A DNA stretch of 63,508 bases, filler included, from Sanchytrium tribonematis (GCA_018985235.1; 25 parts of 25 records of this genome joined end to end with filler, not necessarily neighbours in it), one strand, 5' to 3'; shown: positions 14,085 to 58,318, counted from the first letter of the whole stretch. The notes: generated by a model not told the origin, from the sequence alone. Program-made: numbers and translations.

Positions 14085-14439
14085 ATGGAGGTCTCTTCAG
14101 AAAACCCAGCCAATGCTAACAATAGCACCAATGATGACCCTGCAAAACACATTTATTATAGTCCCAAAGTTTATGACGATATATATGAGTATAGACAGGT
14201 TCATTTACCCAAAAAGCTATTTAACCATTTGCCACCAGAATTTCAAGGTTTTTTTGATTTACTTAGACCCGACATCAAGACCAGGTAAAATTAAGCCAAG
14301 GCTGTTATCTGAGGAAGAATTACGCTCAATTGGGGTACAGCAATCAACAGGATGGATAAATTTTGGCATCCATAATCCTGAACCACATATTCTTTTATTT
14401 CGTAGGAAACACAATGGCAACCGAGAAATCTCAAAGTAA
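14085..14439 (+). CDS. CKS1: Cyclin-dependent kinase regulatory subunit (2 exons: 14085-14247, 14267-14439)
   Basis: IYYSPK..DD.YEYR.V.LPK in exon 1 and LLSEEE.R.IGVQQS.GW...[11 protein letters not shown] in exon 2, joined by removing a 19-nt intron. Confidence 0.92.
14248..14266 (+). other. 19-nt spliceosomal intron
   Basis: GTTTTTTTGATTTACTTAG. Removal joins the two halves of CKS1 in frame. Confidence 0.88.
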
Positions 14440-14468
14440 ACAGTATGCTATTTATTGATTCATTACTA

Positions 14469-14933
14469 CTATATGAGGTATAATTTTCGCTCTTTGAACT
14501 TTTTTGTAGTTTGCCAAGCAGATGCAAATATTATAATTATTGAACTCAGGAGTGTCAATTGAACAGAAACTATGTACATTGCAATTAATTTGTTGTTTTT
14601 TGGAACATCGGGTATATAAAATGCAATTTTCTTGTACATCACATCCAAATGGAACAAGTAGAAGTACAAGAAGATTTCCAAAAACACAACAACAAATAAC
14701 ATTGCCCATTTTTCAAAATGGATATAATAGGGATCATAAAGATGGTGCCACGTCAAGGCACTACTGAAAAGTATTAATATAACAAAATATAGCCAATTAT
14801 TTGGTAAATGGAATAGGTATAAGCCGATGTTAAACATTGTATATCCAAATAAGGACCACTTTCTATGAAGTTCCATTTCAAGTGGCAAGGTGTCGAAAGT
14901 CCTTTTATGAAAACACATTGGCGATTTGTGCAT
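14469..14933 (-). CDS. Small multi-pass membrane protein
   Basis: About 4 hydrophobic segments. No family recognised. Confidence 0.45.
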   Translation of the reverse strand: MHKSPMCFHKRTFDTLPLEMELHRKWSLFGYTMFNIGLYLFHLPNNWLYFVILILFSSALTWHHLYDPYYIHFEKWAMLFVVVFLEIFLYFYLFHLDVMYKKIAFYIPDVPKNNKLIAMYIVSVQLTLLSSIIIIFASAWQTTKKFKERKLYLI

Positions 14934-15139
14934 ACTCAAAAGCTACACTTTTGATAACAATGGCAGAGTCGGTCGAATAAATAATTCCATTTTCACAAGT
15001 CGGCAAAATTGAGGTGCTCAATTGGAACAAAATCGCGTAATCGTTTGTCCAATATTTTCATGATGAAGGACAATTCGACTTTGCTCAAAATGTTTGAAGT
15101 GCACTTGATTAAAAATGAAGAGACAAAAAACTCAAATAT

Positions 15140-16603
15140 TTACTTCTTTTTGATTGACTGTTCATGGACATCCTGTGCTCTTCCACTCGGGTCAGCATCA
15201 CATCCCTATATTAAAATCCAATACCCAGTCTACTCTTGGTACCCACAAATCTACACTTTCACAGCAACAAGGCTGAGGAAATAATTGTTCAAATAGCATA
15301 CGATACCAGTAGCCTTCTTTAGTTGTTGGAGTATCATGCGAGAATCGGATATGTCGATTTTTGAAGACTGCATCCGTAATTTTCTTGTTTGCGACTTCTT
15401 TTAGAGTATCAATCCATGAGTATCCCACTCCGTCACTAAACTGTTCCTTCTGACGATAGAGTACATTTTGAGGCAAAAAAGGATCATCTGGAGTATCGAA
15501 CGCTTTTCTTAAAATGTATTTTTCCATTCGTTCCTTTGAATGCATTTTTTCAGATGGTTCGATAGTCATTGACAAGTCCAAAAATGATTTATCAAGAAAA
15601 GGAACTCGAGCTTCAACTCCCCAAGCCATGGTTGATTTGTTTGCTCTCAAACAGTCGGAAGAATGAAGGTTGTTCACTCTAGTGACCAACTCTTTTTGCA
15701 AATCTTCGGCGGATGGAGCTTTGTTAAAATACAAATAACCACCAAATACTTCGTCGCTTCCTTCTCCACTAAGTACCATTTTGACGCCATGTGCTTTAAT
15801 TTTTCTAGACATTAGGTACATTGGAGTGCTTGCTCTTATTGTGGTAACATCGTAGGTTTCCAAATGATAAATTACATCACGAATTGCATCAATACCATCT
15901 TGAAGTGTGTATGTGAAAGCATGATGCTTTGTGTGCAAATATTCACTTACTTGTTGAGCTGCTTTTAGATCAGGGGATCCTACAAGCCCTACCGAGAAAG
16001 TGTGAAGCTGATCTGAATAGAGGGATTCGATATTTTCGTTGAATGGACTAGTGGATAGTTTTCCATTTTTGTGATCTCTTAACAATCTACATACAATTGC
16101 ACATATTAGCGAACTGTCAAGACCACCGCTTAAAAGAACTCCAAATGGAACCTGACACATTAATCTTTTCTTAACACTATCAATCAGACTTTCTCTCAGA
16201 ATGTCTAGGTCCAATTTGTTGAATTTTTTAGTTGTTAGCCAATGAGGATTGAAATACTTCACAATATTTTCACTCGAGTCTGTGTGTTTGTTATCATGCT
16301 CCAGATAACTTCCAGGCGGAAAAGCTATAATCCTATCACTGATCTGGTTTAAACCTTTCAATTCGCTACTTAAATAGTATTCATTGTCATTGTAGTTATA
16401 GCTTAAATATAATGGTGTAATTCCAATTGGGTCCCTGGCAGCAAAAGTTCGTTTCTTTTCTTTATCATATAAAATGAAAGAAAACATTCCATCCAGTTCA
16501 TTCATCATTAAATTTAAACCGTCTTTTTGATCCTTGTAATGCTCGTATAAATATATAATAATATGACAATCGCTTGAGAGTTCATCTTTGATCTTGTATT
16601 TAT
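15140..16603 (-). CDS. Glutamine-dependent asparagine synthetase (5'-partial; last exon 15205-15140)
   Basis: LDGMF, ARDPIGITPLY, LLSGGLDSS, LETYDVTTIRASTPM and SGEGSDE. After the intron it continues WGCDADPSGRAQDVH. Confidence 0.95.
15206..15224 (-). other. 19-nt spliceosomal intron
   Basis: GTATTGGATTTTAATATAG. Removal restores the conserved DWGC..DPSGRA terminus. Confidence 0.9.
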
Positions 16604-17031: not shown

Positions 17032-17943
17032 TCAATAGAGTAATTGAGTTCTTGAAGTTGTTTTGATTGTTTTCATTTTTCGAAATGGTGTTTTAGTGAC
17101 GACATAGACAATGACAAGGAAACTAATTAGTATTCTTAGGACTAAAGACAGCGTTATTGTTATTGGAGATATAATTGTTTCAAAATGAGTAGATATATTG
17201 GGACTTTTAGTGGTAGTTTGTAAATTAACAAGGGTGCATCTTATCAGAATAGATTCTGTTGCTTTTAAAGTCATTCTGGTTGATGGTGTGATGATATTTC
17301 TAGTCACTATAGAACGAAGATGTGGGAAAGCATCAAGAGACTCAATTAATTCGGAGGAAACAAGTGGCAAATCAATAGATTTTTCATATGATGATTCAAC
17401 AGAGGTTTTTGAAGCATCTAGATAAGTATATGCATCTGTTCTTGTTGGAGTACCAATAATAGCAATAGTCGATGAGCTTTTTAAACTAGTCCAACTCAAT
17501 GAATATAATCCATTTTGAGAACAAATACTAGGAGATGGCAAATTAGAGACATCTGCTAATGGATTATTACCAATATCACATTTGTTTGCCAATATAGCAG
17601 AATAATCAGTGATTTTTAAGCCTGTAAACAAATTATCACTGATAAATAATTGTCTGGGTCTATTTGCACTAAATGTCCCAGTGAATTGGTTGCCATAGAC
17701 ATAAATAGATGTTAAAGTACTTGGCATTGTAGGTAGCTTCCCCGTAAATAAGTTATTACCTACTCCTAATTGCTGCAAATTACTTGGTAAATTCGCAATA
17801 TTTCCAGTTAACAAATTATTGCCAAGATACAATTGTTGAAAGATTGCAGGGAAGTTAGGGACTGTACCAGTTAACGTGTTGTAATTGACTCCAAACTCAA
17901 TCATGTTAGTGGGATAATTCAATGGCAAAGAACCAGATAATCG
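17032..17943 (-). CDS. LRR receptor-like membrane protein (5'-partial)
   Basis: LRRs (LQQLGVGNNLFTGKLP), C-cap CDIGNNPL, S/T stalk and TM (LVLRILISFLVIVYVV). Confidence 0.8.
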   Translation of the reverse strand, partial: RLSGSLPLNYPTNMIEFGVNYNTLTGTVPNFPAIFQQLYLGNNLLTGNIANLPSNLQQLGVGNNLFTGKLPTMPSTLTSIYVYGNQFTGTFSANRPRQLFISDNLFTGLKITDYSAILANKCDIGNNPLADVSNLPSPSICSQNGLYSLSWTSLKSSSTIAIIGTPTRTDAYTYLDASKTSVESSYEKSIDLPLVSSELIESLDAFPHLRSIVTRNIITPSTRMTLKATESILIRCTLVNLQTTTKSPNISTHFETIISPITITLSLVLRILISFLVIVYVVTKTPFRKMKTIKTTSRTQLLY

Positions 17944-18890: not shown

Positions 18891-19760
18891 AAAGGATTAA
18901 GACTATCTATCAGGGAAGTCAAAACATGCTTTGACTTGCTAAAAAGTCTTTCACAAATGAGGTTGGGTTTAAATGAGATAAATCTATATTGGCTTTCAAA
19001 ATTCTTTTTTTTGGTTTGTACTTGCTTTTAAAGCTTGTTGAACAAAATTTAATTCAGAACTGCTTGGTTCGCTAACAATTTCAAATGATGGGCTTAAACG
19101 AAAAAGCTGGACAGTAAGGTTTTAGTTTAAATTTTATACTACGTATAATAAGTTCTCGTTTAAAATTTTATTTGAATTGACTCAAATCTTACACCTAATG
19201 CTACATATGCGAGTTGTGTTGATATTTGTAAGATTTGATTTTCCTAATAATTTTTAAAACATGAATTTTGTTGGCGATGANNNNNNNNNNNNNNNNNNNN
19301 NNNNNNNNNNNNNNNNNNNNNNNNTTAATTAATTAANNNNNNNNNNNNNNNNNNNNNNNNNNNNNNNNNNNNNNNNNNNNTTAAATCTTTTTGACTGCAC
19401 TTTGTTAAAAGTGAATTTGTTAAATCTGCACAATTCGAACAATAACTGGATCTTATGGCAGAATTTGGAATAGAATTAGAATTTATACATGTAAGCGCAG
19501 CGATATATGCAGTGGAACAAGTATTTGAGAGTGAAGAAGTTGTCATGTTATAAAATTTGGAGCAACTTTTTCTTTATTTTATTACTGACCAATCACAGAA
19601 TAAAGTGATAAACTGCAAGGTAATTATCTGATTGCAAATATACAATTGGAAGGATAAAATTAGATAATCTTGCCCAAAATCAAAATTAATCCAGAGAATT
19701 GAGAGCAAAATCGTTGTAGTCAGAATATTGATATCATTTCTTATCTAATTTCCAATCTAT

Positions 19761-20617
19761 TTATTCCAATTTTACCTCATTCAAAGCATCTTCCAGTTCC
19801 TGAATTATTTGTTTGATTGTGAATTTCTTTCTTTGTTTGTTAAATCTGCTCATATCTTGCCAAATTTGTTTATTTGTCAATAATTCATGTAAATAAATAC
19901 TCATTTCCTCACTGATACTCTCCAAATTCCCTTCATTTACTAAATAACCAGATTGTTTCATAATAATTGTTTCTTTGACACCTCCAGAATTCATTCCAAT
20001 TACAGGAATTCCATAGCTCATGGCTTCAATGGGGACTATTCCAAAGTGTTCATGACTGGGTGTATAGATAATTGCTTTTGATTTGCTTAAAATAAATTGT
20101 TTTTGCAAATTCGTGCAAGATTTAATAAATGTCACAGATTTAGATAAATCAATTTCTGACACTTCTACACCATTAAATACATTGTAATCTAGTTGTAATT
20201 CATTGCATATATCTATTAAATGCTCCAATGTGGTCAAATTCTCTTGTAAATTCACATCAAATCCACCAACCAATAATAATTTAATATTAGAAATTGGCAA
20301 ATTTGAATGCTTCATTCTATTTATTAGTTTATAATAGGCATAAATAGCGCGTTGAATTTGTTTTTTACCCTCAAATCTGTTTATACTGCTAATCACTTGA
20401 TAATTATAGGCAAATAATTCATTTCCAGTATATTTGATATATTCTGTCCCTGGATATAATACTTGGATATTCTTGCTTCCAAATGTATTTTTATAAATTT
20501 GACTGGTGTATTGGCTATTTACAAATACTTTAAATGCCATATTTGTAGAAATACGCTCTAATTGATCAAATGGCCATCTGTAAATCATTTTCAATAAATG
20601 ATCACGCCTAGTCAATA
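19761..20617 (-). CDS. ALG2: Alpha-1,3/1,6-mannosyltransferase (5'-partial)
   Basis: VNSQYT, SINRFEGKK, YTPSHEHFGIVPIEAM and NSGGVKET. Confidence 0.85.
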
Positions 20618-21159: not shown

Positions 21160-21590
21160 TCAAATGAAATTTCTTTTTCTAAATTAGTATGTAATACCTT
21201 GGGTGCATTCTGTGCTTTATTAAAAATGTAACCCCAAGTATCAGGCAAATAACCTTAGCACCGACGTACATGTATCCAAGATTAGTAGAATCACCTAAAA
21301 CAGAAGATGTCGTTATTAAAACTTTTTTGTGACCTCCAAATGAAACAGTATCAAAGTGATGATTTACACCTAAAACATAATCTCCCTTCTTGAGGGAACT
21401 TGTCCGCCTCCAAAACTCATTAAAATTAGAAAAAGGGGCTACTCTTGTCCAAACCAGAGGATCTTAATATTCTTGCAAATTTGGAATAGTGCCGTCATTG
21501 TAAAGTCCATCTTTGCATTTATAGCTCCAATTTTGGTGGTGGAACAACATCTGCAGCGGAGTATTTTGTTTTTCCGAATCTTTTTTTTGA
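21160..21590 (-). pseudogene. CDC50/LEM3 flippase subunit pseudogene fragment
   Basis: KKRFGKTKY...VPPP/WS...IPNLQEY*D...W.RVA.F..F, LKKGDY...SFGGHKKVLITTSSVLG...LGYMY...FLIKHRMHPR. One frameshift and one stop. 5' boundary approximate. Confidence 0.75.
21179..21197 (-). other. 19-nt intron retained in the CDC50 pseudogene
   Basis: GTATTACATACTAATTTAG interrupting HPR/K, with a CTAAT branch motif. Confidence 0.65.
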
Positions 21591-22053: not shown

Positions 22054-23286
22054 GGCTCATTACATCGGTTTTTTGGTAAAAATACAGTCCTAGCAACCGG
22101 AGGTTATGGTAGAGCTTATTTTTCATGCACTTCAGCGCATACTTGTACTGGAGATGGAACTGCTATGGTTGCAAGAGCTGGTTTGCCATTACAAGATATG
22201 GAATTTGTTCAATTTCATCCTACCGGAATATATGGTGCTGGTTGTTTAATTACTGAGGGCTGCAGAGGAGAAGGCGGTATATTACTAAATAGCGAGGGAG
22301 AACCATTTATGAGAAGATATGCTCCAGTTGCTAAGGATTTAGCTAGTCGAGATGTGGTTAGTAGATCTATGACTATCGAAATCAAAGAAGGACGCGGCTG
22401 CGGTCCTCAAAAAGATCACATTTATTTACAGCTTAGTCATTTGCCTAAAGAAGTGCTTCATGAGAGGCTGCCGGGAATTTCAGAGACTGCTGCAATATTT
22501 GCTGGTGTAGATGTCACAAAGGAACCAATTCCTATTTTGCCAACAGTTCATTATAATATGGGTGGAATTCCTACAAAATACACCGTAATTTAATTTTATT
22601 TAGGGTCAAGTTATTGGTGTTGATAAAGACGGAAAAGACATCATCATTCCAGGACTTTATGCTGCTGGAGAAGCTGCTTGTGTAAGTGTTCATGGAGCTA
22701 ATAGACTAGGTGCCAATTCTTTGCTTGATATCGTTGTATTTGGACGTGCCTGTGCGCTTCATATTGCAGAGAATAATAAGCCAAATACAAACGAAAAGGC
22801 ATCTTCTGACTTGGGGGTGGCCTCATTTAAAGATCTTGCTTCTTTGAAGGAGAAGAAAGGAAAGGTTGGTGCTGCTAAAATAAGACAGAATATGCAAAAA
22901 GTTATGCAGAGTGATGCTGCTGTGTTCAGAACTCAGTCCACTCTAGAAGCAGGTTGCAAATCTATCTCTGAAGTTGCAAAGTCTTTCGACGGTGTAGTCG
23001 TCAATGACAAAAGCAATGCCTGGAACACAGATTTAGTAGAAACCGTGGAATTGCGCAATTTACTCACAAATGCTGTTCAAACTATGTATTCTGCCGAAGC
23101 TAGAAAAGAAAGTAGAGGAGCTCACGCTAGAGATGATTTTCAAGAAAGAAATGATAAAGAATGGATGAAGCACACTCTATCGTGGCACGACGAAAAAACT
23201 GGAGAAGTCACTCTCAAGTACCGCGAGGTTGCTATGAAAACTTTGGATGAAAAAGAATGCAAATCCGTTCCTCCATTTAAGCGAGT
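22054..23286 (+). CDS. SDH1: Succinate dehydrogenase flavoprotein subunit (partial, one intron)
   Basis: [38 protein letters not shown]...[15 protein letters not shown] and [10 protein letters not shown]. Confidence 0.97.
22585..22603 (+). other. 19-nt spliceosomal intron
   Basis: GTAATTTAATTTTATTTAG, phase 0, containing an in-frame stop. Removal gives [13 protein letters not shown]. Confidence 0.93.
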
Positions 23287-23386: not shown

Positions 23387-24616
23387 ATTTAGGATTTCAG
23401 TTGACTCAATCAGGAATTAAGCCTAATCCAAAGAAAGTGTCTTGTATTTTGGCACTTCACCAGCCCCGAAATGTGTCAGAATTAAGGAGCCAATTGGGTA
23501 TGATAAACTTTTTTAGGCGCTTTATACCACAATGTGCTGGTATATTAGCACCCCTAACCCAATTAACCAAGAAATCAGTTAAGTTTGAATGGACAATTGA
23601 ACATCAACGTCGTTTAGACAGTTGTAAAAAGATGCTGGCTTCTAAAACCTTATTAGTTTACCCATTATTCGACAAGCCATTTCACATTTACTGTGATGCA
23701 AGTGAATATGGTCTTGGGGTGTGTATTTTTCAGTACGATGAGGAAAATATTCCCAATCCGATCTATTTTTATTCGAGAAAATTCAATCCTGCTCAATTGC
23801 GGTACACTGTTGTACATAAAGAAGCATTGGCAGTGATTTCTATTCTTAAACATCTCAGAAAGTTGTTGTATGGGTGTGATTTGCGAATTTACACTGACAG
23901 TTTGAACTTGTCATATTTGCAAACATCAAATAGTTTAAAATTACAGCGGTACTTTATGGAAATAATGGATTTCAACCCCACAGTTGAGCATATTAGTGGA
24001 AAATCGAATGTTGTGGCAGATTTATTGTCTCGCATGAACTTCCAACAATCATTTTTAGAATCACTCGCTATTGAGGACTTTCCATTATCTACACAATATA
24101 TACGAACTGCACAACTAGCAGATTCTGATCTTCAAACCCATTTGCTTCAACTTGAAAGAGACCAGAATTCAAGGAAAAATGAATTTGAATCAAATGAAAA
24201 CCAAAGTAGTGAATATTGTGTCAAATTGATTGAAAATAATGTTGTACTGTGCAAAAAGGATTCATTTCAGATGATTATTCCACAAAATTTGAGAAAGGAT
24301 ATACTTGTTTGGGCACATGATTTGTTTGGTCACCCAGGACAAGGACGAATGTATAATACATTAAAATCCTACATCTATTGGATGGGATTACAACAAGATA
24401 TCAAACAATTTGTCAAGAAATGCCACATTTGTCAAACTGGAAAACAAAATAAGAAGAATTATGGCAAATTGCACAAAACCACAGTTGATATGGACATAAA
24501 TCCATTCCAAGTTGTTGCAATTGATGTGGTTGGTCCCCTTAGTAGTGTATCTGAGGATGATGGGATTGTATTTACTCATATTTTAACAATTATTGACATT
24601 AAAACACGATTTATTG
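23387..24616 (+). mobile_element. Ty3/gypsy LTR retrotransposon pol fragment (RT thumb, RNase H, integrase)
   Basis: LGMINFFRRFI, YCDASEYGLG, KEALAV, HISGKSNVVADLLSR, H..GH...CHIC zinc finger and AIDVVGP. ORF uninterrupted. Confidence 0.93.
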
Positions 24617-26042: not shown

Positions 26043-26790
26043 TGAATTTACCAATAAAGCAAACCACATTTGAACAAGATTGCCAAAATATTAATGTATT
26101 CTACATTTACTCTAATAAACTGTTGCCCACGCCATCAGATTGGCCCCAAAATCACAAAGTTGTTGGAAATTTAGAATTACCAGACTCTCCCAAGCCACTT
26201 CCAGATGCTTTATTACAATTTATCAATCAACACAAGAATATTCCGATTATTTATATTGGATTAGGTAGTATGTTGAGTGTCGTATTTAAGCCAGATGAAG
26301 TAGAAGCGTGTTTAAATAAATTAGCAAATGGGGTCTTTCTGACCATTAAAAATGGTAATAAGCTCGCCTGTGTCTTACACACTGTGGCTAGTCAATCTGT
26401 GACCCCATTAGAATCTACTAATCCCAATTTATTCATCTTAAATGAACCCGTGGCGCATTCTCAATTATTCCCCAAAATGTCCATGATTCTTCATCACGGT
26501 GGAATGGGTACGACACACACTGGTTTATTAGCTGGTAAACCATTCTACCTTGTGGCCCTACTAGTGATCAACCATTTTGGCAAGATGTTGTTTTAAAACG
26601 TGGCTGTGGCCCTAAAGGATTCCCAATTAGTGAATTGGATCCTATGAAATTGAGTACTTGTTTGATGGATGGATTGAATCATTTGGATTTTTACAGTGAA
26701 AATGCAAGAGCCATGAGCAAATCAATGCAAACAGAACAAGGGGCGAAATATATTGTTAAAAACATGGCAAATCTATTAAATATGGAATAA
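26043..26790 (+). CDS. GT1 glycosyltransferase (sterol glucosyltransferase-like) C-terminus, frameshifted near 26542
   Basis: PSDWP, IYIGLGSM, H..LFP...HHGGMGTT...AGKP, then in a shifted frame ILP...DQPFW...G.GP to TAA at 26790. Confidence 0.75.
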
Positions 26791-28593: not shown

Positions 28594-28695
28594 NNNNNNN
28601 NNNNNNNNNNNNNNNNNNNNNNNNNNNNNNNNNNNNNTTAATTAATTAANNNNNNNNNNNNNNNNNNNNNNNNNNNNNNNNNNNNNNNNNNNNGC

Positions 28696-28971
28696 ATGGG
28701 ATATTTGAAAGAATTAGTCAAGGTCAGAATTGAGGATCAAGGCAAATTAAGTAAGAATTTATTTGTTAGCTTTTATCAACATGATTCTCAAAGGCTCTGC
28801 ATAGCTATCACATCAAAATTTGTTTCTGATATTATCCCCAAATCATTATTTGCTCACGGTCGAGAAGGTCTTTTGCTTAATTCTGATTGTAAAATTTCAG
28901 ACTTTTTAGATGAAAATGATACGGACCTTTTGACCTTTAAAATAATAGACTTGCAGAATAAAGCTTTTTAA
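28696..28971 (+). CDS. Hypothetical protein (possibly 5'-partial)
   Basis: 91-aa ORF at the contig start. Confidence 0.35.
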   Translation: MGYLKELVKVRIEDQGKLSKNLFVSFYQHDSQRLCIAITSKFVSDIIPKSLFAHGREGLLLNSDCKISDFLDENDTDLLTFKIIDLQNKAF

Positions 28972-29111
28972 TTGTATTCAACTATGACTGATATTAGAAA
29001 TAGAATTTGTACCTTTTGTATTTCCTTGTAACTATAATCTTGCGACATGATTTGTTGAAAATGGTGTCACTTCAATTTCACATCTCCTCTTAAACAAACT
29101 AATTCCCAAAT

Positions 29112-30200: not shown

Positions 30201-30238
30201 TTATAATAAAATTTTTATTTTGAACTTGACGAGGGGTG

Positions 30239-30565
30239 ATGAAAATTTTGACAACAAATGGAATTGTTGCTTACATGCGCAAAGCACCAAGCATACCACT
30301 TGATTTGACTAAATTACAACAGAGGATTAAAAATCATAAATTGGATACATCAAATTCGGAACTCATGGCTGAGATCAAAGATTTAAGAAAAACTCACAGT
30401 GTTCAACAACTAGCCAAAAAATATAAATGTTCTCCACTAGCAATCAGTATGGTGGCTCCTAAAAAAGGAGCTGCTCTGCAGCTAGAAAAAGAACAATGGC
30501 AACGGTCTTCTTACGCTCAACAATTAGTGAAAATAAGAAAATATCAAAGAAAAGCGATGTGGTGA
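30239..30565 (+). CDS. Probable mitochondrial ribosomal protein mL58 (MRPL20-like)
   Basis: EIKDLR...LAKKYKCSPLAISMVAP...W...RKAMW pattern in a basic protein. Confidence 0.55.
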   Translation: MKILTTNGIVAYMRKAPSIPLDLTKLQQRIKNHKLDTSNSELMAEIKDLRKTHSVQQLAKKYKCSPLAISMVAPKKGAALQLEKEQWQRSSYAQQLVKIRKYQRKAMW

Positions 30566-30600
30566 TCTTAATAATAAATATACGTCTATGCTTGATATAT

Positions 30601-32949: not shown

Positions 32950-32964
32950 ATAACCTAAACTTTA

Positions 32965-34405
32965 TTATGCGTGTAGTCCTACAGAGACTTGGGGATATCT
33001 TTGAACCAAAAGATCATAGAATTCAGGATTTGATTGTCTCAATGCTTCTGGATCTTCTGCAAGACAAACAAAAGTTGTAGCAATACCAGCGTTGATGACA
33101 GTTCCGACATTTGAGAATATAAAGACTCCTAAAAAGCAAGAAACTATTGCCCATAGCCAGGGAAACACATTGTCTGGAACACCACCATAAGCAATTGCAT
33201 AAATTATTAGTGGTATTACGAAGCAAACGAGTGCAACGAAGAAGGTACCTAAAAATATTACCCTATCAATCAAAATCTCATTAATAATGACATCCAGACC
33301 TCTAGATTTTAGCAGATTCCATGTATCTTTAGCCGCAGTGCAGTAATCTTTCCCGTAAATAGCCACCTGGGTAAATGCGTAGTAATTAAAACTAAATTAA
33401 ATAGAATTACAATTCCAATAATCCTTCAAAACATCTAACAATACATTCTAAACAGCACAGAATGACGAAGGCAACTGGAGTATCACTACGTTGTCTTGCA
33501 TAGTTTAACAATTGGCGAATCATTTGCACAATAGTAATTAGCAACGCCCCAAAACAAACAGAACCAAATGAAGTGGTCATTGCACGCTTCAAGGAAGAGA
33601 ATGTGGGAGAACTTGGCATATTGTCAGCTAAAAAATAATAGGTAGCGTATACACCGCAAACAGCAACATGCACAAGATATCGAATAACATTCATAGCCCA
33701 GTAAGAACTAAACATTCCATAGATGACACAAAAAACAAAAGAAGGATTTTTTCCATTATAAATGAGTTGTCCATTGGAATCTTTTGATAAAGCAAATTTG
33801 ATGTAATAAGACATAAATGCTCCAGCAGAAAACCCACTCCAAATTAAACTTAATATGTCACCCGCAAATACTGTATAGATAGTAGCTGGATATTTTCTAG
33901 TGACTTTAACTACAGTACTTAACAACGCGGCCAAAAAAGGGATTTGAGATCTAATTCCAAACCACATAAATACAATAATCACCAAAACGATAACATTGAT
34001 TATGGCCATTACTATATTGAAAGTAAATAAAATAATTGTTGAAATAGCTAGTATGACAAAATAAAACCAGAACGAAAATTTAACCAAAGCTTCAGGAAAT
34101 CTTTGCATGCAAGATAAGTACACGATTGTCATACCAATTGCGAATGCAAATCCAACAAATAAACTAGCAATTCCAGCAGCGGAAAACGGGTTGTCTTCAG
34201 AACTACCAGATTTGGTATTTCCTGAGTCAGGGTGTATTATCCACTCCCATTTTGCAGTTGAATACGCCCAAATAGATAATGCCAAAAAGGCAATGGTATT
34301 CATCCAAAAAAGAATTGCGGCCCAAAGATCTTGCGCTTTTGGTTTTTGTTGCACATTATCAACTAGTTGGCTATTATCATGCTTTTCCTTCACAACTTGC
34401 ACCAT
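32965..34405 (-). CDS. PNS1: Choline transporter-like protein (CTL/SLC44), 2 exons
   Basis: DLWAAILF, SSLKRAMTTSFGSVCFG, spliced LLEFFNYYAFTQVAIYGK and TTFVCLAEDP. Confidence 0.88.
33392..33410 (-). other. 19-nt spliceosomal intron
   Basis: GTAATTCTATTTAATTTAG, phase 2. Removal gives LLEF-FNYYAF. Confidence 0.92.
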
Positions 34406-35445: not shown

Positions 35446-36625
35446 TTATTGTGCATTTTTAAATACGTAAAATCCTTCTTCAATGGTTAATCCTTCGGCC
35501 TTGACTTTAACACCATCAACTTCTTCTTCTTGTCTAGCATTTATATTCCAAACCCTTGTCATTACCTTACACAGCTCCAATAATTCTTCATCCTCCGCAT
35601 CTTTCACGTACTTGAAGAATGCTGGTTGCCAGTCTTCTTCAGTTTCTTTTCTCTCCTTACGAAGTCTGCGTTGTTCCTCTTCTACTTCTGATTTGAATTT
35701 GTTTGCAGCAGAAAAATTTCCATCTTTTAAAGCTTGAGTGACCTTTCCCCAAACTTGATTTGTTTCTAGTGGACCCTGTTCTTCCAAAGGCTTGGGAGTC
35801 AATGTTTCTCGGTTTTCTTTTATGGCATCAAAAAAAGTACGCTCAGAAGTTCCGTTCGGACTAGCAGATGTATACTTAATTTTTGATTCCTCAGTCCATT
35901 TCCCGGAAATCGTGGCAAAACTATCTTTTTGACTATTGAATAATTCAGCTTTGAACGTGTGATATTGTCCGGAAAACCACGCTTTTGGTATAAATTCAAA
36001 ATGAGCCCAATGTCCGCTCTTGCTAACAATTTTTACTTGACCCATTAACTCAATAAAAACATTTGCACTAAACAAACCTCTGAGTGCAATCTGAGGCAAT
36101 GACACAAGATACAAATCTTGTGGCGTTTTGATGACTATACGCCCATATGGTATAACCTAAATAAATAGAAATTACTTGGATCCATGTTCCTTTGAATGAA
36201 GACTTTTGTTTTACTTGTCCAGTCATTTCCACATCATTCCCCAATATATGGAAAGAAGTAATTGGGGGATGGTGTGAAGTTTGTTCCGCACTCAATTGAA
36301 TTCCATCAATTGAGGCAAAAAATTGTTCACCCAAAATTGGATTATAAGGCTTCTTCTCATTTCCACGACTTGCGTAACTCCCAAATAACTGAGATATAAA
36401 CCATCTCGCAACGTTAACAAGTCTCTCTTCGGGATCATTACAATTCATGCTCTTGTAATACTTTGGGTGGTCCAAATAATAAGATGAATACTCTGTCATG
36501 CTTAGCCCATTCAACATAAATGCGGGGGAGGTGATTGACGACAGGTCTCCTGTAAATGATGTTAACGATCCTAAAAATTTAACAAATTCGCTCTTTTGAT
36601 CGCTCTTGGATTCAGTTGGAGACAT
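35446..36625 (-). CDS. KES1: Oxysterol-binding protein, Osh4/Kes1 type (2 exons)
   Basis: GDLSSITSPAF, EKKPYNPILGEQF, EQTSHHPP and KSEVEEEQRRLRK. Confidence 0.9.
36157..36175 (-). other. 19-nt spliceosomal intron
   Basis: GTAATTTCTATTTATTTAG, phase 0. Joins WIQ to VIPYGRIVI and the downstream OSBP frame. Confidence 0.9.
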
Positions 36626-40920: not shown

Positions 40921-40965
40921 AAAGTTTTCAAATAAATTACAATTTTAAATTTCGAGGAGACTTTA

Positions 40966-41540: not shown

Positions 41541-44376
41541 ATGTCAAAATTAGAGCAGCTCTTTGATAGAAATGCTAACGTAGATTCGGAACTTGAGCTA
41601 GAGAGCTCAGATCAACTTAATACCCTTCAGATACCCAAGCCTTTAAATGCATTTCAAAACACTTATAATTCTAATCAATCATTTCAATCTCGACATGCTA
41701 GCGTTCAAAGCGATACCAGTAATTTAATACTTTTTGATCAAGGTAATGACAAAGATAACATGGCAAATTATTTATCAACTAGATCAATAGACACATTTGT
41801 GAGTTCCACACCACAGGTAAATCAAGATGTGCCAAAAACGCAATTAAAGTGGATTCTTAATACATGGAGTGGCGTATTTATACCCTCAATACACGCATGC
41901 ATAGGTATTACAATATTTCTAAGATTACCTTGGATTATTGGATGGAGCGGCGTCACAATGAGCTTGATTTATTTACTCATTGGGCAAACGCTTATTGGTT
42001 TGACATGTACATCTGTCGCAGCAATTGCTTCAAATGGATTTAAAAGTGGCGGCGGTCCTTATTATATGATATCAAGAAGCCTGGGCAAAGAAATCGGAGT
42101 TTCTGTTGGTTTAATATTATGGCTTAGTCTTTGTGTATCATCAACAATATATATAAGTGGTTCGGCCTTAATATTGTCACGATTTTTATTTCCAGCTATG
42201 TCATTTAAAGATCTTTCTTGGAATACTCACGTTTATGGATCAGTTCTTCTTTTATTATTGACTCCATCTCAATTTTTGAATAAGAAGCATCTTTACTTTC
42301 TAAACATGACATTGTTCGCGTTTGTTATTCTAAGTGTTCTTAGTTTGATGATTGGTCTTTTATCTAATGAGCCAAGATATGATGGAATTCAAAAATTGCC
42401 AGGAAATTTGTCTCAAAATATGGAACCATCGTTTCTTGATTTTGAGTCGGACTTACTTGTCGCTGGCGGTCCATTTATGTACTTTTTCGCGGTCTTTTTC
42501 CCTTCTATTTCGGGAATCATACCGGGTTTAAATAGAAGTGGTTCCTTAAGACATCCAGCTGAGTCTTTAAAAATAGGGTTGTTTTCAAATTTGTTAATTA
42601 CGACTATTCTTTATACCATAATAATTCTACTGCTTGGGTGTGTCGTCAATCAGGACTTGCTTCAGCGTCAATACTCTAATAACAGTGACAGGCTTGTAAT
42701 TGCAATGGTTTCATGGCCAACAGACGTAGTTCAACTTGTATTAATATTTTTTTCTGCAATTGGAGCTGCAATATATTGTTTCTCTGGTGCTAATTCACTT
42801 TTAGGATCAGTTGCCAACGACGGCATCATTCCAATTTTAAAAAATCTGAATGCTACTAAAAAAAGTTCTTTGATTTGGAGAACCATTTTAGTCACAATGA
42901 TTGTTACATTAATATTTCTTCAAATTGGGAGCTTTGACATTTTATCAAAAGCCACCTCTTTGATAAATTTACTTACTTTTTGTTTCCTTAATTGGAGTAC
43001 AGCACTTTTGGGGTTTTTGAAAACACCTGGTTGGAGACCCTCATTCAAGTTTTATCATTGGTCATCGTCTTTATTGGGTGGAATTTTAAGTCTCGGTCTA
43101 ATGTTCGCATTTGACTGGAGAATCGCTGTTGGCGCAGTCTTGTTCATGGGCGTTTTAATTGGATATGTTCAATATTATGGTGCACTTGTTGACTGGGGCG
43201 ATGCTATCACAGCTCTAAATCTACAAATCAGCCAACGAAATCTTGTAAAGCTAGAAAAGTACTCTGATACTAATGTTAAAAATTGGCGCCCCCAATTATT
43301 AGGATTTGCTCCCATTAATCATGAGCATGATTCTTTGCCTGCGATATTGTCATTCTTATCGCAAATCAAAAAAGGTCGTGGTCTAACAATTATATTGAGT
43401 GTTATCATCACAGAGGATTTGAATAAAGTATACTCAGAAAAGCAAAATGAGAAGCTCCAACAGCTTTTGAAAAGCAAAATGGTGGACCATGGTATTAATG
43501 GATTCGCAGAAGTCTTAGTGTCAAGGAGTTTAGTTGATGGTATTGCACATGCAGTACAATTATCTGGACTTGGGAAGCTTTCGCCTAATACTGTTGTCAT
43601 GGGGTACATGTCCACAAGAGACAACATGGAAAAATGCGAGCAATATGTGGAAGCAATCAAGGCAGTTTTAATTTGCAAAAAGGGTCTTGTATTGCTGAAA
43701 TCGGTGTCTGAGTTTCCGACTGCACATCAATTACAAACAGGATACATAGATGTATATTGGATTAGACATGATGGCGGAATGTTGAGCATTCTTCCGCATC
43801 TGCTTAAAAAACACCACATATGGAGAAAATGTAAACTAAGAATATTTGCTCTAGCCGAACTTACAGACAATAGTGTGGAAATTGAACGAAACTTAAAAGA
43901 AGCATTGTTGGAACTAAGAATTGAGGCTTACAGTGAAGTGATAGAGCTAGGGGATTCTGATATAAGCGAATTTACTTATGAGAGAACGATGCAGCTACAA
44001 GAACGCCAAGAGTACTTGAAGAAAATAAGACATGATATGGGTAGAAATCGTAAAAATTCCCTTCATTTGTTTATTCGTGATGAGGCTAGTTCTTTGGCTA
44101 TATCGCCCTACATCAAGCAGCAAAATAAGAAATTGTATTTGTAATTAATTAAGGGATAAAAGTAAAATTGAATACATGAATACTTCAGTGAAAGTGAATT
44201 CAATAATGAAGAAACGATCTTCAAAGTCTCCATTGGTTTTTTGCAATTTACCAATTCCAAATGGTTCTCAATCTGCTTTAGACTACCTAGAATATGTTGA
44301 CGTATTATGCACCGATCTCAAACGAGTCATTTTGGTTAAGGGCGCTGGCTTCGAAGTTGTCACCAGTTCATTTTAA
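41541..44376 (+). CDS. Cation-chloride cotransporter (SLC12, KCC-like), 2 exons
   Basis: GVFIP...IFLRL.W, GGGPYYMISRSLG, FFPS.SG, PGWRPSFKFY, KNWRPQ, IDVYWI.HDGGML, and a terminal MNTSVKVN...LVKGAG.EVVT. Confidence 0.92.
44135..44153 (+). other. 19-nt spliceosomal intron
   Basis: GTATTTGTAATTAATTAAG, phase 2. Attaches the conserved SLC12 C-terminal segment in frame. Confidence 0.85.
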
Positions 44377-44447: not shown

Positions 44448-45201
44448 ATGCGGAACTTTAGAAAGAATGATTATATATTCGATTATTTTCAAAACAAAAA
44501 AATAATGCTCTCGATTCAAAAATTTACCATTTACTCTCAGATATCTTATGGGACTACTGATAACTCCATACAAACAGAGGATGTTGAAAAACAGGACCTC
44601 AATCTACAAACTAGTAACTCGATAGAGGGAGAAACACAAACAATTTCAAGGCCATTTATTAAATTAAATCCTATAGATCTTATTGAAGAAGCAATAATTG
44701 AAAATAGAATGTTTTCAAGTATTTACAAATATGCAGACTCTAATGCTTATTATCTAATGAAAGCTATTAATCAAATACAGGCGAAGAAATACGAGGAAGT
44801 TCTCATAAGTATCAATGATCAGAATTGTTTACTTGTTATTAACAATCAAAAATCATCACTTTTGTACCTCATTGATGAAGGCAGCAATATAAATACCAAA
44901 CAATTACCCGAAAAAATTAGTGTTATAATGGAAAGTCAATTTGGCACGTATTTAGGTAATACCATTGATTTTAAATCATATAACAAAAACGAAATCCACA
45001 GCTCTAAAATTCTGGATATTTCTTATTCCAAAAACTTGGTAGCGCTATCCGAAGGGATTCTAATGGGTGGGAAGTTTGTTCTAAATGAGAATATCAGTTC
45101 GTTCGCATCGCTAAGTAATGACTTTATATTAATTGGGACATATAATGGTATTATAAAGCAATATAGAGTTTCGAACGATATGTGCGTCTTTGAAAACAGC
45201 G
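44448..45201 (+). CDS. Hypothetical protein, possibly WD40-like (3'-truncated)
   Basis: Long ORF with repeated xQT motifs and ILIGTYNGII. Family uncertain. Confidence 0.4.
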
Positions 45202-47078: not shown

Positions 47079-47226
47079 GAGTATACGATGTTCGTCCGCC
47101 TTATATGGAAAAAACAAACGGCGCGACGGTAGTATTTGATTGGGCACATACCAGATGTGCAAAATGTGAAATCGATAGCCTTAAATGTCAAACCGATATG
47201 CCAAAATCATGAATAAAAAAGGCAAA

Positions 47227-47344
47227 AGCTACAGCACATGGGATTCCCACCCCGTCTCCGATGGCAGTACTAACCATGCCAGCACCTGCTTAACTTCTGA
47301 AATTTAACAGGATCAGGTGTTTCCAGGTGTGTATGGCCGTAGCT
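47227..47344 (-). rRNA. 5S ribosomal RNA
   Basis: AGCTACGGCCATAC...CCTGATCC...GAAGTTAAGC...TTAGTACT...GGGAATCCCATGTGCTGTAGCT. 118 nt, paired termini and a downstream T run. Confidence 0.95.
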
Positions 47345-48370: not shown

Positions 48371-48420
48371 ATTTTTTGAAACAAATTGAAAATGCCTTTG
48401 GAATATGCTCTTCAACATAA

Positions 48421-49158
48421 AGGTCGATTTGGACCAATATTTTACTTCATTCGAGCAGACCTGCCAAGACCATTCAAATGCAACAATTTGAACAATTATT
48501 ACAAGAAAACGGTGTTAAATTGCGGCTAACTCTACTTGATACAGTAGGTTTTGGCTTAACACTGAATCGATCGTCAGATCTCGAACCAATTTTGGCGTAT
48601 ATAAAGGCACAATACGAAAGTCATTTGAATATTGAGAGGTCTACTGAAAGAAAACATATACAAGATACCAGAATTCACTGTATACTTTATTTTATCCCTC
48701 CTACAGGACATGGATTGAAAGAACTCGATGTGCTTGCCTTGAAAACACTTTCAAATTGGTGTAATGTAATACCTGTAATTTCAAAGGGAGATGCATTTAC
48801 ACCCGACGAATTAACAAAGTTCAAAGAATCAATTCTTGCTTCATTAAAGGAATTTGAGATTCCAGTATATCCTTGGAATTCAGGCGAAGGAAAAGATCAA
48901 GTTTCAGACATTCTGCAACATTACCCCTATGCTGTAGTGGGTGCTAATGAAAGCATCAAAGATAAGACTGGAAAGAGTGCTCCCGTGCGCAAATATAGTT
49001 GGGGCTCGATTAAATGTAATTCTTATTAATTTAGTGGATGACGATACACAGACAGACGTTCCTAAGCTTAGGAGACTTTTGATAAGTGACAATATGGCAG
49101 ATTTGATTGAATCTACTCATGTCCGCCATTTTGCTCAATATAGAGCCGGCTTTATGCA
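48421..49158 (+). CDS. Septin (N-terminal P-loop absent, 3'-truncated, one intron)
   Basis: ENGVKLRLTLLDTVGFG, DTRIHCILYFIPPTGHGL..LD, NVIPVISKGD, PYAVVG, R.YSWG|...D..KLR.LL. Confidence 0.85.
49016..49034 (+). other. 19-nt spliceosomal intron
   Basis: GTAATTCTTATTAATTTAG, phase 1. Gives WGSIKLDDDTQTDVPKLRRLL in the septin unique element. Confidence 0.9.
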
Positions 49159-54614: not shown

Positions 54615-55580
54615 ATGAAAGCAAAAGATTCTAAAATCGACTTTGAGAGTATCTCAGATGAGCCCACTAAGCTTGTATTGTGTGAAGTATTTGAAAAGCT
54701 GATGGATAAGATGCAACTAATAGAAAAGAAACAAGATGAGCAGATGGAAAAATTGAAAAATATGGAAACGAAACAATATGAGCAGATGGAAAAATTGAAA
54801 AATATGGAAACGAAACAATATGAGCAGATGGAAAAATTGAAAAATATGGAAACGAAACAATATGAGCAGATGGAAAAATTGAAAAATATGGAAAAAATAC
54901 AAGCAGGTTTAAGTGCTCAAGTGAGTGCGCTTTTAAGTGACAATAAGATTGTTTTAGCATCAATTGGAAGAATTGAAAAACAATTAGGCATCTTATCAGA
55001 ATCATCAGTCAGACAGTCTTTTGAAAAGAAATAAGGATTGTCCTTTGCTAAGTCATTAACATTTCACTCTATAAATGATGTTTTCCAGCACATTACTAAT
55101 CAGCTCAACAATGATCCCTAGCCTATTCAATTCAAATCGAAAGTATATTACGAGACTAAACTGTTAGAAATCTATATATTGAATTGAAACTATACAGCGT
55201 TGATTTCAATAACTCTGATAGAAACGATGCTTTCAAGCAACTTTAACAATACCAGGCTAAAGGCATGATGAAATTCGGGATTAAAATTAGACCACAAATG
55301 AGTCATTGAGAGACTATCGTTATCAAATGAGGGAAAGCAAACTTAGGAATATTGATGAATGTGGTTTAACGGTGGAATTTTTACACAACAATCAAAATTG
55401 AAGTTGCCAAGAATCAATTATTGTTGTGTATTGATCTCATCGAAAAATACATTCGCCTTAGTGAACTTGATGACCGCAAAACTTTTTTGAAAAAAGGATA
55501 TGTTTTTACCGTTAGGACACCTGGATATAAAAAGAGCTTCAATTTAAAAATTGATGTTGAAGTAGTAAATGTGAATTAAT
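54615..55580 (+). pseudogene. Coiled-coil repeat gene with a decayed 3' half
   Basis: ORF to 55034, then the frame continues past TAA (KK*GLSFAKSLTFHSINDVF) with further stops and shifts, and a terminal stretch IEVAKNQL...KGYVF...VNVN*. Confidence 0.45.
54736..54894 (+). repeat. 42-bp perfect tandem repeat (about 3.8 copies)
   Basis: Unit ATGAGCAGATGGAAAAATTGAAAAATATGGAAACGAAACAAT starts at 54736, 54778, 54820 and 54862. Encodes (Y)EQMEKLKNMETKQ. Confidence 0.95.
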
Positions 55581-55813: not shown

Positions 55814-57016
55814 CACCATTGTCGCACTAAGCAGCTGCAATTTTGTGAAATTAATTGGCCAAGTGCCTCAATATTTAAAATATTTAGATATTTCCATGAA
55901 CAAGATTAGTGGTAAGTTACCAGAATTTTCTCAATTAAAGGGACTCGTAGTCTCTTTTAATCAATTTAGTGGTCCAGTCCCTCAAAACTTCCCAATTGCA
56001 ACAAAAGTTTTATTAAATAACAACAATTTTAATGGTACATTGCCACAAGCCCCTAATTCTTTTCAGTATTCTGCAAATGACAATCAATTTAGTGGACCTG
56101 TGGACATTCCAAGTTCTTCCTTTTTATATTACGAGGTACAAAATAATCTTTTAAGTGGACCAATCACTGATTTTCAGCGAATTTATTCGGGTGTTTTCCG
56201 CAATAATTTATTAAGTGGTACCATTCCAGTAATTCCTAATGGTGTAAGTGGTTTAGATTTGTCATTCAACTTATTTACAAATCTAACGGGTCCATTTCCA
56301 GCTATAGGAATGCCAAATCAAGTCAATTCTAATCAAATTAGTGGTGAAATTGCAATGTTACAATTGACTTATACGAAATATTTGTTTCTTTACAACAATT
56401 CCATTTCTAATATCTATATTGCAGCACCAAATACGCTTCAATATTGTGATATTACCAAAAATCCCATTTTAAATTATACTAATTTGGGGAATTGTGTAAA
56501 TAATTCAGATTCTTTTTTGAAACTAAATGTGATGACTTCTGAGATTACGACTATTGCAAGAGCTTCTACACCATTCTCAACGATCATTTCAGTTACATCT
56601 GCAGCAGAAGCAGCAATTACTAGCTCATCATTAGTATTAACAAATTCTCCATCTTCTGCCACGACTCAGCCATTCGCAAATGAAAATAAGGTCTTGTCAG
56701 TGGCATTTACCACTGAAATAACTGAATATTTGAATACTGGAATTGAAATACCAGGTATATTTTATTTATTTAGAAATCATTTTGACCAGAAGGTTGTTTT
56801 TCAAAACTACAGCAAGTACTTCTCTTGATGTAGGAAGCACCTATTTATTTGTAAACTCAACAAGAGGATTACAAACGAAATATGCTAATTTAACATTCAA
56901 ACCGAGTTATAAATTGAATGAATTTGTAAATTTGAGTGTGCTTTCTATTGTGAAATTGGTGATTAATTCAATGATCATTGTGATATTACCATCGTTTATG
57001 AAATTTGAACGAAAGA
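55814..57016 (+). CDS. LRR receptor-like membrane protein (partial, one intron)
   Basis: LRRs (LDISMNKISGKLP), C-cap CDITKNPI and an S/T stalk. The TM (VLSIVKLVINSMIIVIL) lies in the second exon. Confidence 0.8.
56755..56773 (+). other. 19-nt spliceosomal intron
   Basis: GTATATTTTATTTATTTAG, phase 1. Links the LRR/stalk ORF to the TM-encoding ORF. Confidence 0.82.
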
Positions 57017-57117
57017 NNNNNNNNNNNNNNNNNNNNNNNNNNNNNNNNNNNNNNNNNNNNTTAATTAATTAANNNNNNNNNNNNNNNNNNNNNNNNNNNN
57101 NNNNNNNNNNNNNNNNT

Positions 57118-57497
57118 CCCATCATACCAATTTCTGATTTTAACGAAGGCATATCATTTGCAAAATCTCAGTATTTCATTATTCATTTAGGCCAAAACCA
57201 TTGGCAGCGTATGTTTTTTCACACGATAAAGCACTCCAAAATCAGGTATTAGACAATATCTGCGCTGGAAATACTATGATTAATGACGTTCTTATGCATA
57301 TGGGCTATTTGACTTTACCTTTTGGTGGTTGTGGAAATTCTGGCCAAGGAAGCTACCATGGAAAGTTTGGGTTTGATCAATTTACTCATAGTAGAACGGT
57401 ATTGCATCGTCCGATTATTGATGAGCCCATAATGAACATTCGCTATCCGCCACTCACAGAATCTAAGGTCAATTGGTTAAATTTTCTTTTAGGGTAA
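57118..57497 (+). CDS. Aldehyde dehydrogenase, ALDH3/HFD1-like C-terminus (5'-partial, one intron)
   Basis: PII...SQ|PKPLAAYVFS, LPFGGCGNSGQGSYHGKFGFDQFTH and RYPP. Confidence 0.9.
57171..57190 (+). other. 20-nt spliceosomal intron
   Basis: GTATTTCATTATTCATTTAG, phase 2. Gives FAKSQPKPLA. Confidence 0.85.
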
Positions 57498-57530
57498 AGT
57501 AAAATGAACGATTCAGAATAATTTATTGCT

Positions 57531-58318
57531 TTAAAAACAGCATCTCCACCAAGATTTTTTGGGTTCACTAACTTTTTCCTCCTCTACCGCTTTTTCCACA
57601 TGGGGCGTCGTTTGCTAAATGAGATAAAAATACTTGCAAATCTTTGAAGGCTTGGACTTTGAGCCAATCAAAGTCTAAATTAAGTTTTGTCTCCTTCGAA
57701 AACCCACTATTTTGAGTATTTGTAGATATAGTGCTTCCACCACCATTGCTTTTAAGCATGTTATCGAATAATTTGTATAAATATTGGTAATCTGGATCTT
57801 CTTCAAAAGCAAGCCTTCTAGCATAGGTCATGTACTCCGACAATTCTTTAGGTAAATTTGCACATAGTTCAGATATTGGGGTTGCTTGTTTTTTCTCTCC
57901 GATTTTTTCGTACTTTTGCCTATTGGTAGCAGCTTTAAGACCCTGCCACGGCAATGAGCCTCTTAAAAAGTAAACAAAAACATGTCCCAGTGCCTCTATG
58001 TCATCTCTACGACTCTGTTCTCTACCCAAATGTGTGTGAATAGACATATACCTAGCAGTGCCACTAAGGGACTTTCGTTCCCTGTAAGGAATGTGTTGCT
58101 TTGTTCTTGGATCTCTGTAATGTTTGCACATTCCAAAATCAAGCAAAAATACAATATGTTGGGAAGAACCTCCTGGCCTTCCAATTAAAAAATTATCTGG
58201 TTTTATATCTCTATATATTAAATGTTTGTTGTGAAGCAGTTCAATTCTTTTAATCATCTGTATAGCTAAGTACGCCGTTGTTTGTATGGTGAATTGCCTG
58301 TTGCACATATCAAATAGA
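57531..58318 (-). CDS. Casein kinase I, Yck1/2 (gamma-like) type (5'-partial; last exon 57614-57531)
   Basis: [29 protein letters not shown] and LPWQGLKA. The spliced C-terminus ends KKSWWRCCF*. Confidence 0.93.
57615..57633 (-). other. 19-nt spliceosomal intron
   Basis: GTATTTTTATCTCATTTAG, phase 0. Exposes a terminal Cys-Cys motif typical of Yck-type CK1. Confidence 0.85.

Follow-up and report, generated by a model that had tools for sequence, protein, structure and literature searches.

The DNA stretch analyzed here (hereafter the window; 63,508 nucleotides [nt], a concatenation of 25 contigs, 2 of about 16.5 kb and 23 of about 1.2 kb, giving a sample of about 61 kb) carries eleven short GT-AG segments that interrupt coding frames. 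With a probability of about 0.9, judged from the sequence, these are genuine U2-type spliceosomal introns of a sanchytrid fungus, near-fixed at 19 nt, each starting with a GT(A) donor and closing in AG, with the predicted branch A at position -6 from the 3' end. Sanchytrium is an alga-parasitising fungus, and the original prediction that near-fixed-length spliceosomal introns occur in a fungal nuclear genome is supported by a common motif, by breakage of the reading frame when the segments are retained, and by gap-free homology when they are removed. The coordinates, the lengths (ten of 19 nt and one of 20 nt), the GT-AG ends, and the spread over seven contigs were all found again in the sequence. 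From these patterns we infer, rather than observe, actual splicing, the chemistry of the branch, and any change in the spliceosome. A search of sequencing runs for RNA matching 28694-38690 listed none, which speaks neither for nor against splicing.

The segment set and its shared signal

The G+C content of the window is 34%, and about 80% of its DNA lies under long open reading frames (ORFs). All eleven segments start with GT and end with AG on the coding strand, six on the plus and five on the minus strand; they are spread over 7 of the 25 contigs, and 5 of them lie on the two 16.5-kb contigs. Each segment, if retained, brings the upstream frame to a stop after 1 to 35 codons. The claim that all three phases occur is borne out by counts of four, three, and four for phases 0, 1, and 2. 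Every intron found in the 61 kb is 19 to 20 nt long, a figure for the window sample and not a genome-wide census, and the Pfam domains that are split over two frames (six of six) are rejoined by 19-nt segments. The density in the window is 0.23 introns per kb of ORF cover, beside 1.30 introns per kb of coding sequence published for Allomyces (PMC8476143). Scaling 11 introns per 61 kb to 11 Mb extrapolates to roughly 2,000 introns per genome.

A signal absent from the original prediction is a T at position -8 together with an A at position -6 from the 3' end, which are present in 11 of 11 segments. T also occupies each of positions -5, -4, and -3 in 10 of 11, and the donor, GTA in 10 of 11, is mostly followed by T-rich bases; the inner letters of the segments are 62% T and 30% A. 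When these inner letters were shuffled, an invariant A column of any kind arose in 6 of 200,000 trials and a T-N-A pair in none. U-N-A is the core of the U2 branch site, and with this context standing before the AG in every segment, the A at -6 is likely the branch point. U12-type introns are marked by an extended donor consensus and a pyrimidine-rich branch consensus; the position counts contain neither, the donor tail being U/A-rich.

The abundance of such segments exceeds chance expectation at one length above all. AT-rich GTA..TAG 19-mers number 18 in the window, whereas 20 local dinucleotide shuffles averaged 5.15 and reached 9 at most. When the same test was run for lengths 12 to 39, only 13 nt (9 versus a maximum of 7) and 24 nt (7 versus a maximum of 6) also exceeded the shuffles, slightly and far below the excess at 19 nt. 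Eight of the 18 are claimed segments; the pattern misses those of CKS1 and SLC12 because the former has a GTT donor and the latter an AAG end. Five of the ten further GTA..TAG 19-mers were inspected (19757-19775, 14448-14466, 28751-28769, 45148-45166, and 62366-62384) and are not introns, lying within open frames, over a stop codon, or between genes. A scan with the segment motif over lengths 14 to 60 gave 11 matches at 19 nt, ten of which are the claimed segments, and at most 5 at every other length, a result that is partly circular because the motif was derived from the same segments. Matches at 22610-22628 and 32271-32290 were ruled out as introns, each lying inside a continuous ORF; the latter (plus strand) may be a cryptic splice site or a regulatory one. 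When GT..AG joins of 12 to 120 nt were scanned by codon score, only 2 of the 11 segments were recovered at the thresholds used, and the scan was too noisy to decide.

Reading frames across the junctions

The original prediction also held that removal of the segments restores conserved sequence in a series of named genes. Restoration is exact at four of the eleven junctions (SDH1, PNS1, septin, and aldehyde dehydrogenase), within one residue at one (OSH4), partial at three, and supported at the level of the motif at three. The claim thus stands strictly for the first four, nearly so for OSH4, and on the 3' side for SLC12; it does not stand in that form for CKS1, where the junction falls in a variable loop, for asparagine synthetase, where 19 and 28 nt are ambiguous, or for casein kinase 1 (CK1), where motif and frame logic carry it.

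The SDH1 intron (22585..22603, plus strand; 19 nt, phase 0, predicted branch A at 22598) has a junction that is gap-free in the 10 homologue rows displayed, and its join is the best of 18 GT/GC..AG alternatives (370 versus 300, with 120 homologues); if it is retained, the frame stops after 2 codons. Comparison of the SDH1 3' exon with metagenome contigs gave two distant loci (49 to 51% identity), which were not used. In PNS1, a choline transporter-like gene (33392..33410, minus strand; 19 nt, phase 2, predicted branch A at 33397), 24 of 27 records cross the junction without a gap, and the other three (the window ORF P0121, P0123 of the sanchytrid Amoeboradix gromovi, and P0125) end one residue past it; the join is the best of 19 alternatives. 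The septin join (49016..49034, plus strand; 19 nt, phase 1, predicted branch A at 49029) is the best of 47, with eight distant homologues crossing gap-free and one falling short of the site. The single 20-nt segment, in the aldehyde dehydrogenase (ALDH) gene (57171..57190, plus strand; phase 2, predicted branch A at 57185), aligns gap-free over the junction with a Rhizobium aldehyde dehydrogenase and is the best of 11 alternatives by a small margin (115 versus 112). The OSH4/KES1 intron (36157..36175, minus strand; 19 nt, phase 0, predicted branch A at 36162) separates halves that match yeast Osh4 up to residue 176 and again from residue 186, the link being 8 residues when spliced versus 9 in yeast.

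Three junctions are partly constrained. In the SLC12/KCC transporter gene (44135..44153, plus strand; 19 nt, phase 2, ending in AAG, predicted branch A at 44148), alignment to KCC structures begins with the first full residue of the downstream exon, which fixes the acceptor, and the upstream, donor side is variable; the segment has stops in all three frames. The CKS1 intron (14248..14266, plus strand; 19 nt, phase 1, donor GTT, predicted branch A at 14261) divides the Pfam CKS domain into positions 1-29 and 29-67 in two separate frames, and its removal joins two conserved halves over a variable loop; this loop, once spliced, exceeds that of Suc1/Cks1 by 4 residues, so that homology leaves the boundaries unfixed. 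The asparagine synthetase intron (15206..15224, minus strand; 19 nt, phase 0, predicted branch A at 15211) lies close to the gene's 3' end, and its removal restores a C-terminal motif common to Escherichia coli AsnB; searches of the PDB did not settle this junction.

For CK1, CDC50, and a leucine-rich repeat (LRR)-containing gene, the support is the motif, present in full in each, together with frame logic. The CK1 intron (57615..57633, minus strand; 19 nt, phase 0, predicted branch A at 57620) is in the tail of the gene, and the spliced tail terminates in a Cys-Cys motif, which we take to be the lipid-anchor signal of Yck1/2-type kinases. The candidate at the 3' end of CDC50/LEM3 (21179..21197, minus strand; 19 nt, phase 2, predicted branch A at 21184) follows an exon in which homology extends to the final residue, with six residues to come whether spliced or unspliced, so that its support is at the motif level only. 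Removal of the candidate in the LRR-containing gene (56755..56773, plus strand; 19 nt, phase 1, predicted branch A at 56768) adds 81 codons up to the contig end, versus a stop after 24, and a homologue covering the junction was not found.

Relatives, spliceosome, and alternative explanations

Over 198 residues, the septin ORF matches EukProt P0148 of Sanchytrium tribonematis with 100% identity, A. gromovi standing at 80%, and by this sequence identity the DNA is that of S. tribonematis or of a nearly identical sanchytrid (Sanchytriomycota). The best named matches of SDH1 are Blastocladiella and Allomyces (67 to 68%). A quick SDH1 tree of 48 rows (47 hand-picked from 120 homologues, plus the window) placed the window and P0001 on a long branch (Shimodaira-Hasegawa-like approximate likelihood ratio test, 100) beside Blastocladiomycota (84, weak). 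The paper erecting Sanchytriomycota gives genomes of 10.5 and 11.2 Mb with 36% and 35% G+C, obtained by multiple displacement (whole-genome) amplification; the proteins were predicted from the genomic contigs with TransDecoder (PMC8371127). Among ENA/NCBI proteins, P0001, P0122, P0124, P0125, and P0149-P0151 are 58 to 86% identical to those of the window and imply at least three more sanchytrid-like genomes in public assemblies besides the two described species.

Because these gene calls ignore introns, the C termini of sanchytrid records read into them. The prediction that gene predictors would split such genes is confirmed in EukProt, which includes both unspliced OSH4 halves, the unspliced SLC12 (truncated), PNS1, and septin ORFs, and a CKS1 ORF that, in the downstream frame, traverses the intron. 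EukProt matched six of the seven window ORFs sought in it, two of them intron-free as controls; no match came up for asparagine synthetase, whose ORF the contig end cuts short. In PNS1, A. gromovi P0123 (59% identical) and P0125 end at the same residue as the window ORF, and P0122 and P0124 are without the window's intron. All five sanchytrid-type septin records (P0148-P0152, 79 to 100% identical) end at most 8 residues past the intron site. The PNS1 site is thus common to A. gromovi and P0125, and the septin site to A. gromovi (P0152) and P0149-P0151.

The read-through tails of these records were fitted with every phase, lengths of 10 to 44 nt, and all back-translations; of seven tails, three were informative. 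The fit was best at 19 nt for the septins of A. gromovi (P0152) and P0151, with 2 of 2 visible exon codons each, and for the P0124 PNS1 tail, with 11 of 11 codons of the window exon, at a site that is intronless in the window. When the T-8/A-6 rule was added, P0151 and P0152 fitted 19 or 30 nt only and P0124 fitted 19 nt only. The P0149 tail was uninformative, as are fits that end on a TAG stop, which gave a false 14-nt fit for the window's own septin tail; a 17-nt fit of P0150 ends on such a stop and was not counted. Because the P0151, P0152, and P0124 tails fit 19 nt, the length class of about 19 nt appears, from sequence comparison, to be shared by at least three other genomes, and intron positions would be partly conserved and partly not across relatives. 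Relatives accordingly share the length, the tails of P0150 and P0122 excepted, and some of the positions.

The proposed check of spliceosomal factors was made on eggNOG annotation labels, not sequences, covering the A. gromovi sheet in full and the S. tribonematis sheet at its start. The former lists Prp8, Brr2, Snu114, SF3B1, U2AF1, U2AF2, SF1, U1-70K, and Prp5 (PMC8371127, supplement file 4), as well as a Prp16-type helicase, Prp22, Prp17, Cwc22, Cwc25, Isy1, and the lariat debranching enzyme Dbr1; rows for Prp5 and Snu114 occur in the visible start of the latter. Prp8, SF3B1, U2AF, and a Prp16-type helicase are therefore annotated as present, and Slu7 and Prp18 had no match in the A. gromovi sheet by name or by KO/KOG numbers. 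Two ORFs of a single A. gromovi contig are labelled Snu114 (rows 445 and 451 of supplement file 4), the pattern to be expected if an unrecognised intron divides the gene.

Several observations weigh against reading the segments as a uniform class of efficiently spliced 19-nt introns. Six of the 11 boundaries are not wholly fixed by homology, and for asparagine synthetase the 19-nt join ranks second of 27 alternatives, scoring 113 versus 116 for a 28-nt option with the same acceptor (judged against one distant homologue, E. coli AsnB). At 32271-32290, a consensus-perfect 20-nt motif sits in a 531-codon ORF (31354-32946, of unknown family) that runs on unbroken, which shows that the motif by itself is insufficient. 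Among the relatives, the two septin tails rest on only two codons; under the branch rule the P0150 septin tail fits 17, 18, or 21 and more nt and not 19 or 20, and the P0122 PNS1 tail is not fitted by 19 nt. Some length variation within the clade is therefore likely, and a uniform clade-wide length is unproven. The blank for Slu7 and Prp18 is weak because Yju2, SF3B6, and Smu1 also had no match in the A. gromovi sheet and only about half of predicted sanchytrid proteins are annotated (PMC8371127). Splicing efficiency may also be low, since the short introns of microsporidia are spliced at a mean of less than 20% (PMC6349667).

Of the alternative explanations, the only one with real weight is that the introns are real but form the short mode of an ordinary broad length distribution, the longer ones having been missed in the window. 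It draws on there being only 11 introns in 61 kb, on the difficulty of detecting long introns close to a start codon or in a gene that has no homologue, and on the two misfitting tails. We nevertheless consider it unlikely, because all of the frame-split Pfam domains are joined by 19-nt segments, the motif scan is a flat background at other lengths, and long ORFs already cover most of the window.

That the segments are retained in mRNA, with +1 frameshifting or translational bypassing, or with truncated or split proteins being expressed, is improbable to a much greater degree. Ten of the 11 lengths are 3n+1, and public gene calls show apparently complete ORFs ending in or just past segments; however, one length is 3n+2 and all three phases are present, homologues leave no space for six or seven additional residues at SDH1, PNS1, septin, ALDH, and OSH4, and the invariant GT, AG, and T-8/A-6 are splicing signals rather than slippery sites. 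The public ORFs, moreover, are TransDecoder output from genomic contigs (PMC8371127).

Removal by a non-spliceosomal route, whether tRNA-type or structure-guided RNA excision or DNA excision like that of ciliate internal eliminated sequences, has slightly less standing still. Very short uniform inserts are typical of such systems too, and weak hairpins can be drawn from several segments taken together with their flanks. Yet the folding z-scores run from -1.66 to +1.34 over the 11 segments with no common structure, the conserved end structure of structure-defined introns (tRNA-type and euglenid nonconventional) is lacking, the flanking triplets form no common repeat, the GT..AG ends and branch-like A are those of spliceosomal introns, and A. 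gromovi is annotated with a core spliceosome and Dbr1. Artefacts of assembly or whole-genome amplification, or pseudogene insertions, can be dismissed as the source even though the published sanchytrid genomes were amplified (PMC8371127) and small contigs carry lesions (a septin deletion near 48433 and a frameshift near 26540), since the sites recur in other species at 59 to 85% protein identity, the two 16.5-kb contigs carry 5 of the 11 segments, EukProt has an intact septin copy from a longer contig with the identical read-through, and no shared consensus is expected from artefacts.

If the segments are spliceosomal introns, U1 and U6 would read a short donor and U2 would pair with the U-N-A element, giving a lariat loop that spans 14 nt between the donor G and the branch A. 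Since just three bases separate that A from the AG, distance, not scanning or a polypyrimidine tract, would define the acceptor, and this spacing might make Slu7 and Prp18 unnecessary, as for yeast substrates with less than 7 nt. Slu7, Prp18, and Prp22 are described in a review as dispensable for the second step when the branch is less than 7 nt from the acceptor (PMC3392075), a rule that the -6 position fits. A length of 19 nt may be near a steric floor, reached through deletion bias during genome reduction in a parasitic lineage; the shrinkage would have followed the split from Blastocladiomycota and would be independent of that in Microsporidia, heterotrichs, mikrocytids, and nucleomorphs. 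The fullest version of this proposal, in which the whole of Sanchytriomycota would have a single class of about 19 nt, some 2,000 per genome and the shortest in opisthokonts, with the branch A locked at -6 and Slu7 and Prp18 shed from an otherwise complete spliceosome, is put forward tentatively, as one that could well fail.

Other tiny-intron systems and further features of the window

A close likeness is to the heterotrich ciliate Stentor coeruleus, with introns of 15 to 16 nt and the branch A at position 10 of 15 or 11 of 16, equivalent to -6; both systems have U-rich GTA..AG introns of near-single length, a branch A at -6 (predicted in the sanchytrid), and canonical U2-type machinery (PMC9505925). 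The sanchytrid introns differ in being 19 to 20 nt long, with a predicted loop of 14 nt versus 10 nt in Stentor and an invariant T-8, and in residing in a fungal host at about 0.23 per kb of ORF with splicing deduced from sequence. The branch position common to the two suggests, by analogy, a common geometric limit. Chlorarachniophyte nucleomorphs, with introns of 18 to 21 nt (more than 800 in about 300 genes, with splice-site signals only), are alike in size class, AU richness, and canonical ends, and a molecular-caliper model has been proposed for them (PMC6009652; PMC10245619); the sanchytrid introns are less dense, have a fixed branch-like element, and belong to the main nucleus of a fungus. 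Mikrocytids are likewise parasites with a narrow intron size range (16 to 17 nt) and conserved intron sequence, but they are rhizarians with a very reduced spliceosome and intron-free metabolic and transporter genes (PMC10245619), whereas genes for enzymes and transporters carry the sanchytrid introns, and U1-70K, U2AF, and SF1 are retained in A. gromovi.

Within the opisthokonts, microsporidia and Rozella also have short introns in reduced parasites of the fungal radiation. About a third of 76 nt is the length given for the short introns of Encephalitozoon cuniculi (about 25 nt; 37 introns, poorly spliced), and Rozella introns are about 30 nt (PMC6349667). These are longer than the sanchytrid introns, which are found midway along, or close to the 3' end of, housekeeping genes such as SDH1, and the sanchytrid origin would be separate from the microsporidian one because sanchytrids branch with Blastocladiomycota. 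Myxobolids and dicyemids, opisthokont parasites with median intron lengths of 22 to 27 nt (22 nt in myxobolids), likewise have donors trimmed to GTa and polypyrimidine tracts that are slight or lacking, but their introns are broader in range, with longer medians and a weak, movable branch A, where the sanchytrid introns are tighter and their A is fixed (PMC13644364). Introns down to 23 nt occur in Trichomonas (PMC12316389).

The precedents named in the original prediction, nucleomorphs and heterotrichs, are therefore upheld, and its list omitted mikrocytids, myxozoans, and microsporidia. With a myxozoan median of 22 nt and microsporidian introns of about 25 nt, short introns in opisthokonts are not new; the 19-nt length class appears to be, being shorter than the fungal and animal classes found described. 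No report on sanchytrid introns was found in the literature searched, a search that left subscription papers and the main supplementary PDF of PMC8371127 outside. In the accessible main text of that paper, "intron" occurs only in a reference title and "splic" nowhere, and the accessible parts of PMC10459994, PMC9730499, PMC10622942, PMC10406608, and PMC10158995 do not describe sanchytrid introns.

If the reading as near-fixed spliceosomal introns is true, this would be the first case in Fungi, and the fourth independent origin overall, of uniform introns no longer than 21 nt, and it would undercut both the 22-nt median published in 2026 as the animal minimum and the microsporidian introns of about 25 nt. 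Because sanchytrid splicing factors are fungal, a residue-by-residue comparison with yeast structures is possible, which would make testable what sets the minimum intron length and whether second-step factors are lost at a short, fixed branch-to-AG distance. Were a single class to hold for the whole phylum, no natural minimal-intron system would be closer to the yeast spliceosome than that of the sanchytrids. Inferences of gene content and gene loss for the phylum deserve re-annotation, since the proteomes were called without intron models and genes are split or truncated.

Two genes of the window carry lesions of another kind. At 48392-48433, the septin gene, which lies on a contig of 1.2 kb, skips from P0148 residue 14 to 76 with a change of frame (residues of about 15 to 75 deleted), likely as an amplification chimera or a damaged duplicate. 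A glycosyltransferase-like gene at 26045-26787, with no Pfam match and with motifs that we take to be of the sterol glucosyltransferase type, changes frame near 26540 without GT..AG signals, likely through assembly error or as a pseudogene.

An Rfam scan of the window matched only 5S rRNA, a single gene (47226-47344, minus strand; 89.5 bits) amid protein-coding ORFs; the U1, U2, U4, U5, and U6 small nuclear RNAs were absent from the matches in this stretch of the genome. Fragments of long-terminal-repeat retrotransposon pol genes (reverse transcriptase, RNase H, and integrase zinc domain) lie at 23389-24615 (plus strand) and 59720-60916 (minus strand), and the contigs at 58419-59617 and 59718-60916, with 49 to 52% G+C versus 34% overall, are possibly foreign or contaminating. 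On the two long contigs, only tens of bases lie between the members of many gene pairs, and the stop-to-stop frames of a NUDIX protein (10268-11089, minus strand) and a mitochondrial carrier (10800-11702, plus strand) overlap head to head. RRP40 (40936-41448, plus strand) seems to begin at its S1 domain, presumably missing the usual N-terminal domain, and an intron candidate upstream was not seen. Three divergent LRR-containing genes (1-1500, 17035-17943, and 55815-57015), with about 28% mutual identity, suggest a lineage-specific family. A 42-nt tandem repeat occupies 54720-54894, and an 85-nt direct repeat of 93% identity links the region of an ankyrin gene with a downstream intergenic stretch (2385-2469 and 5671-5755).

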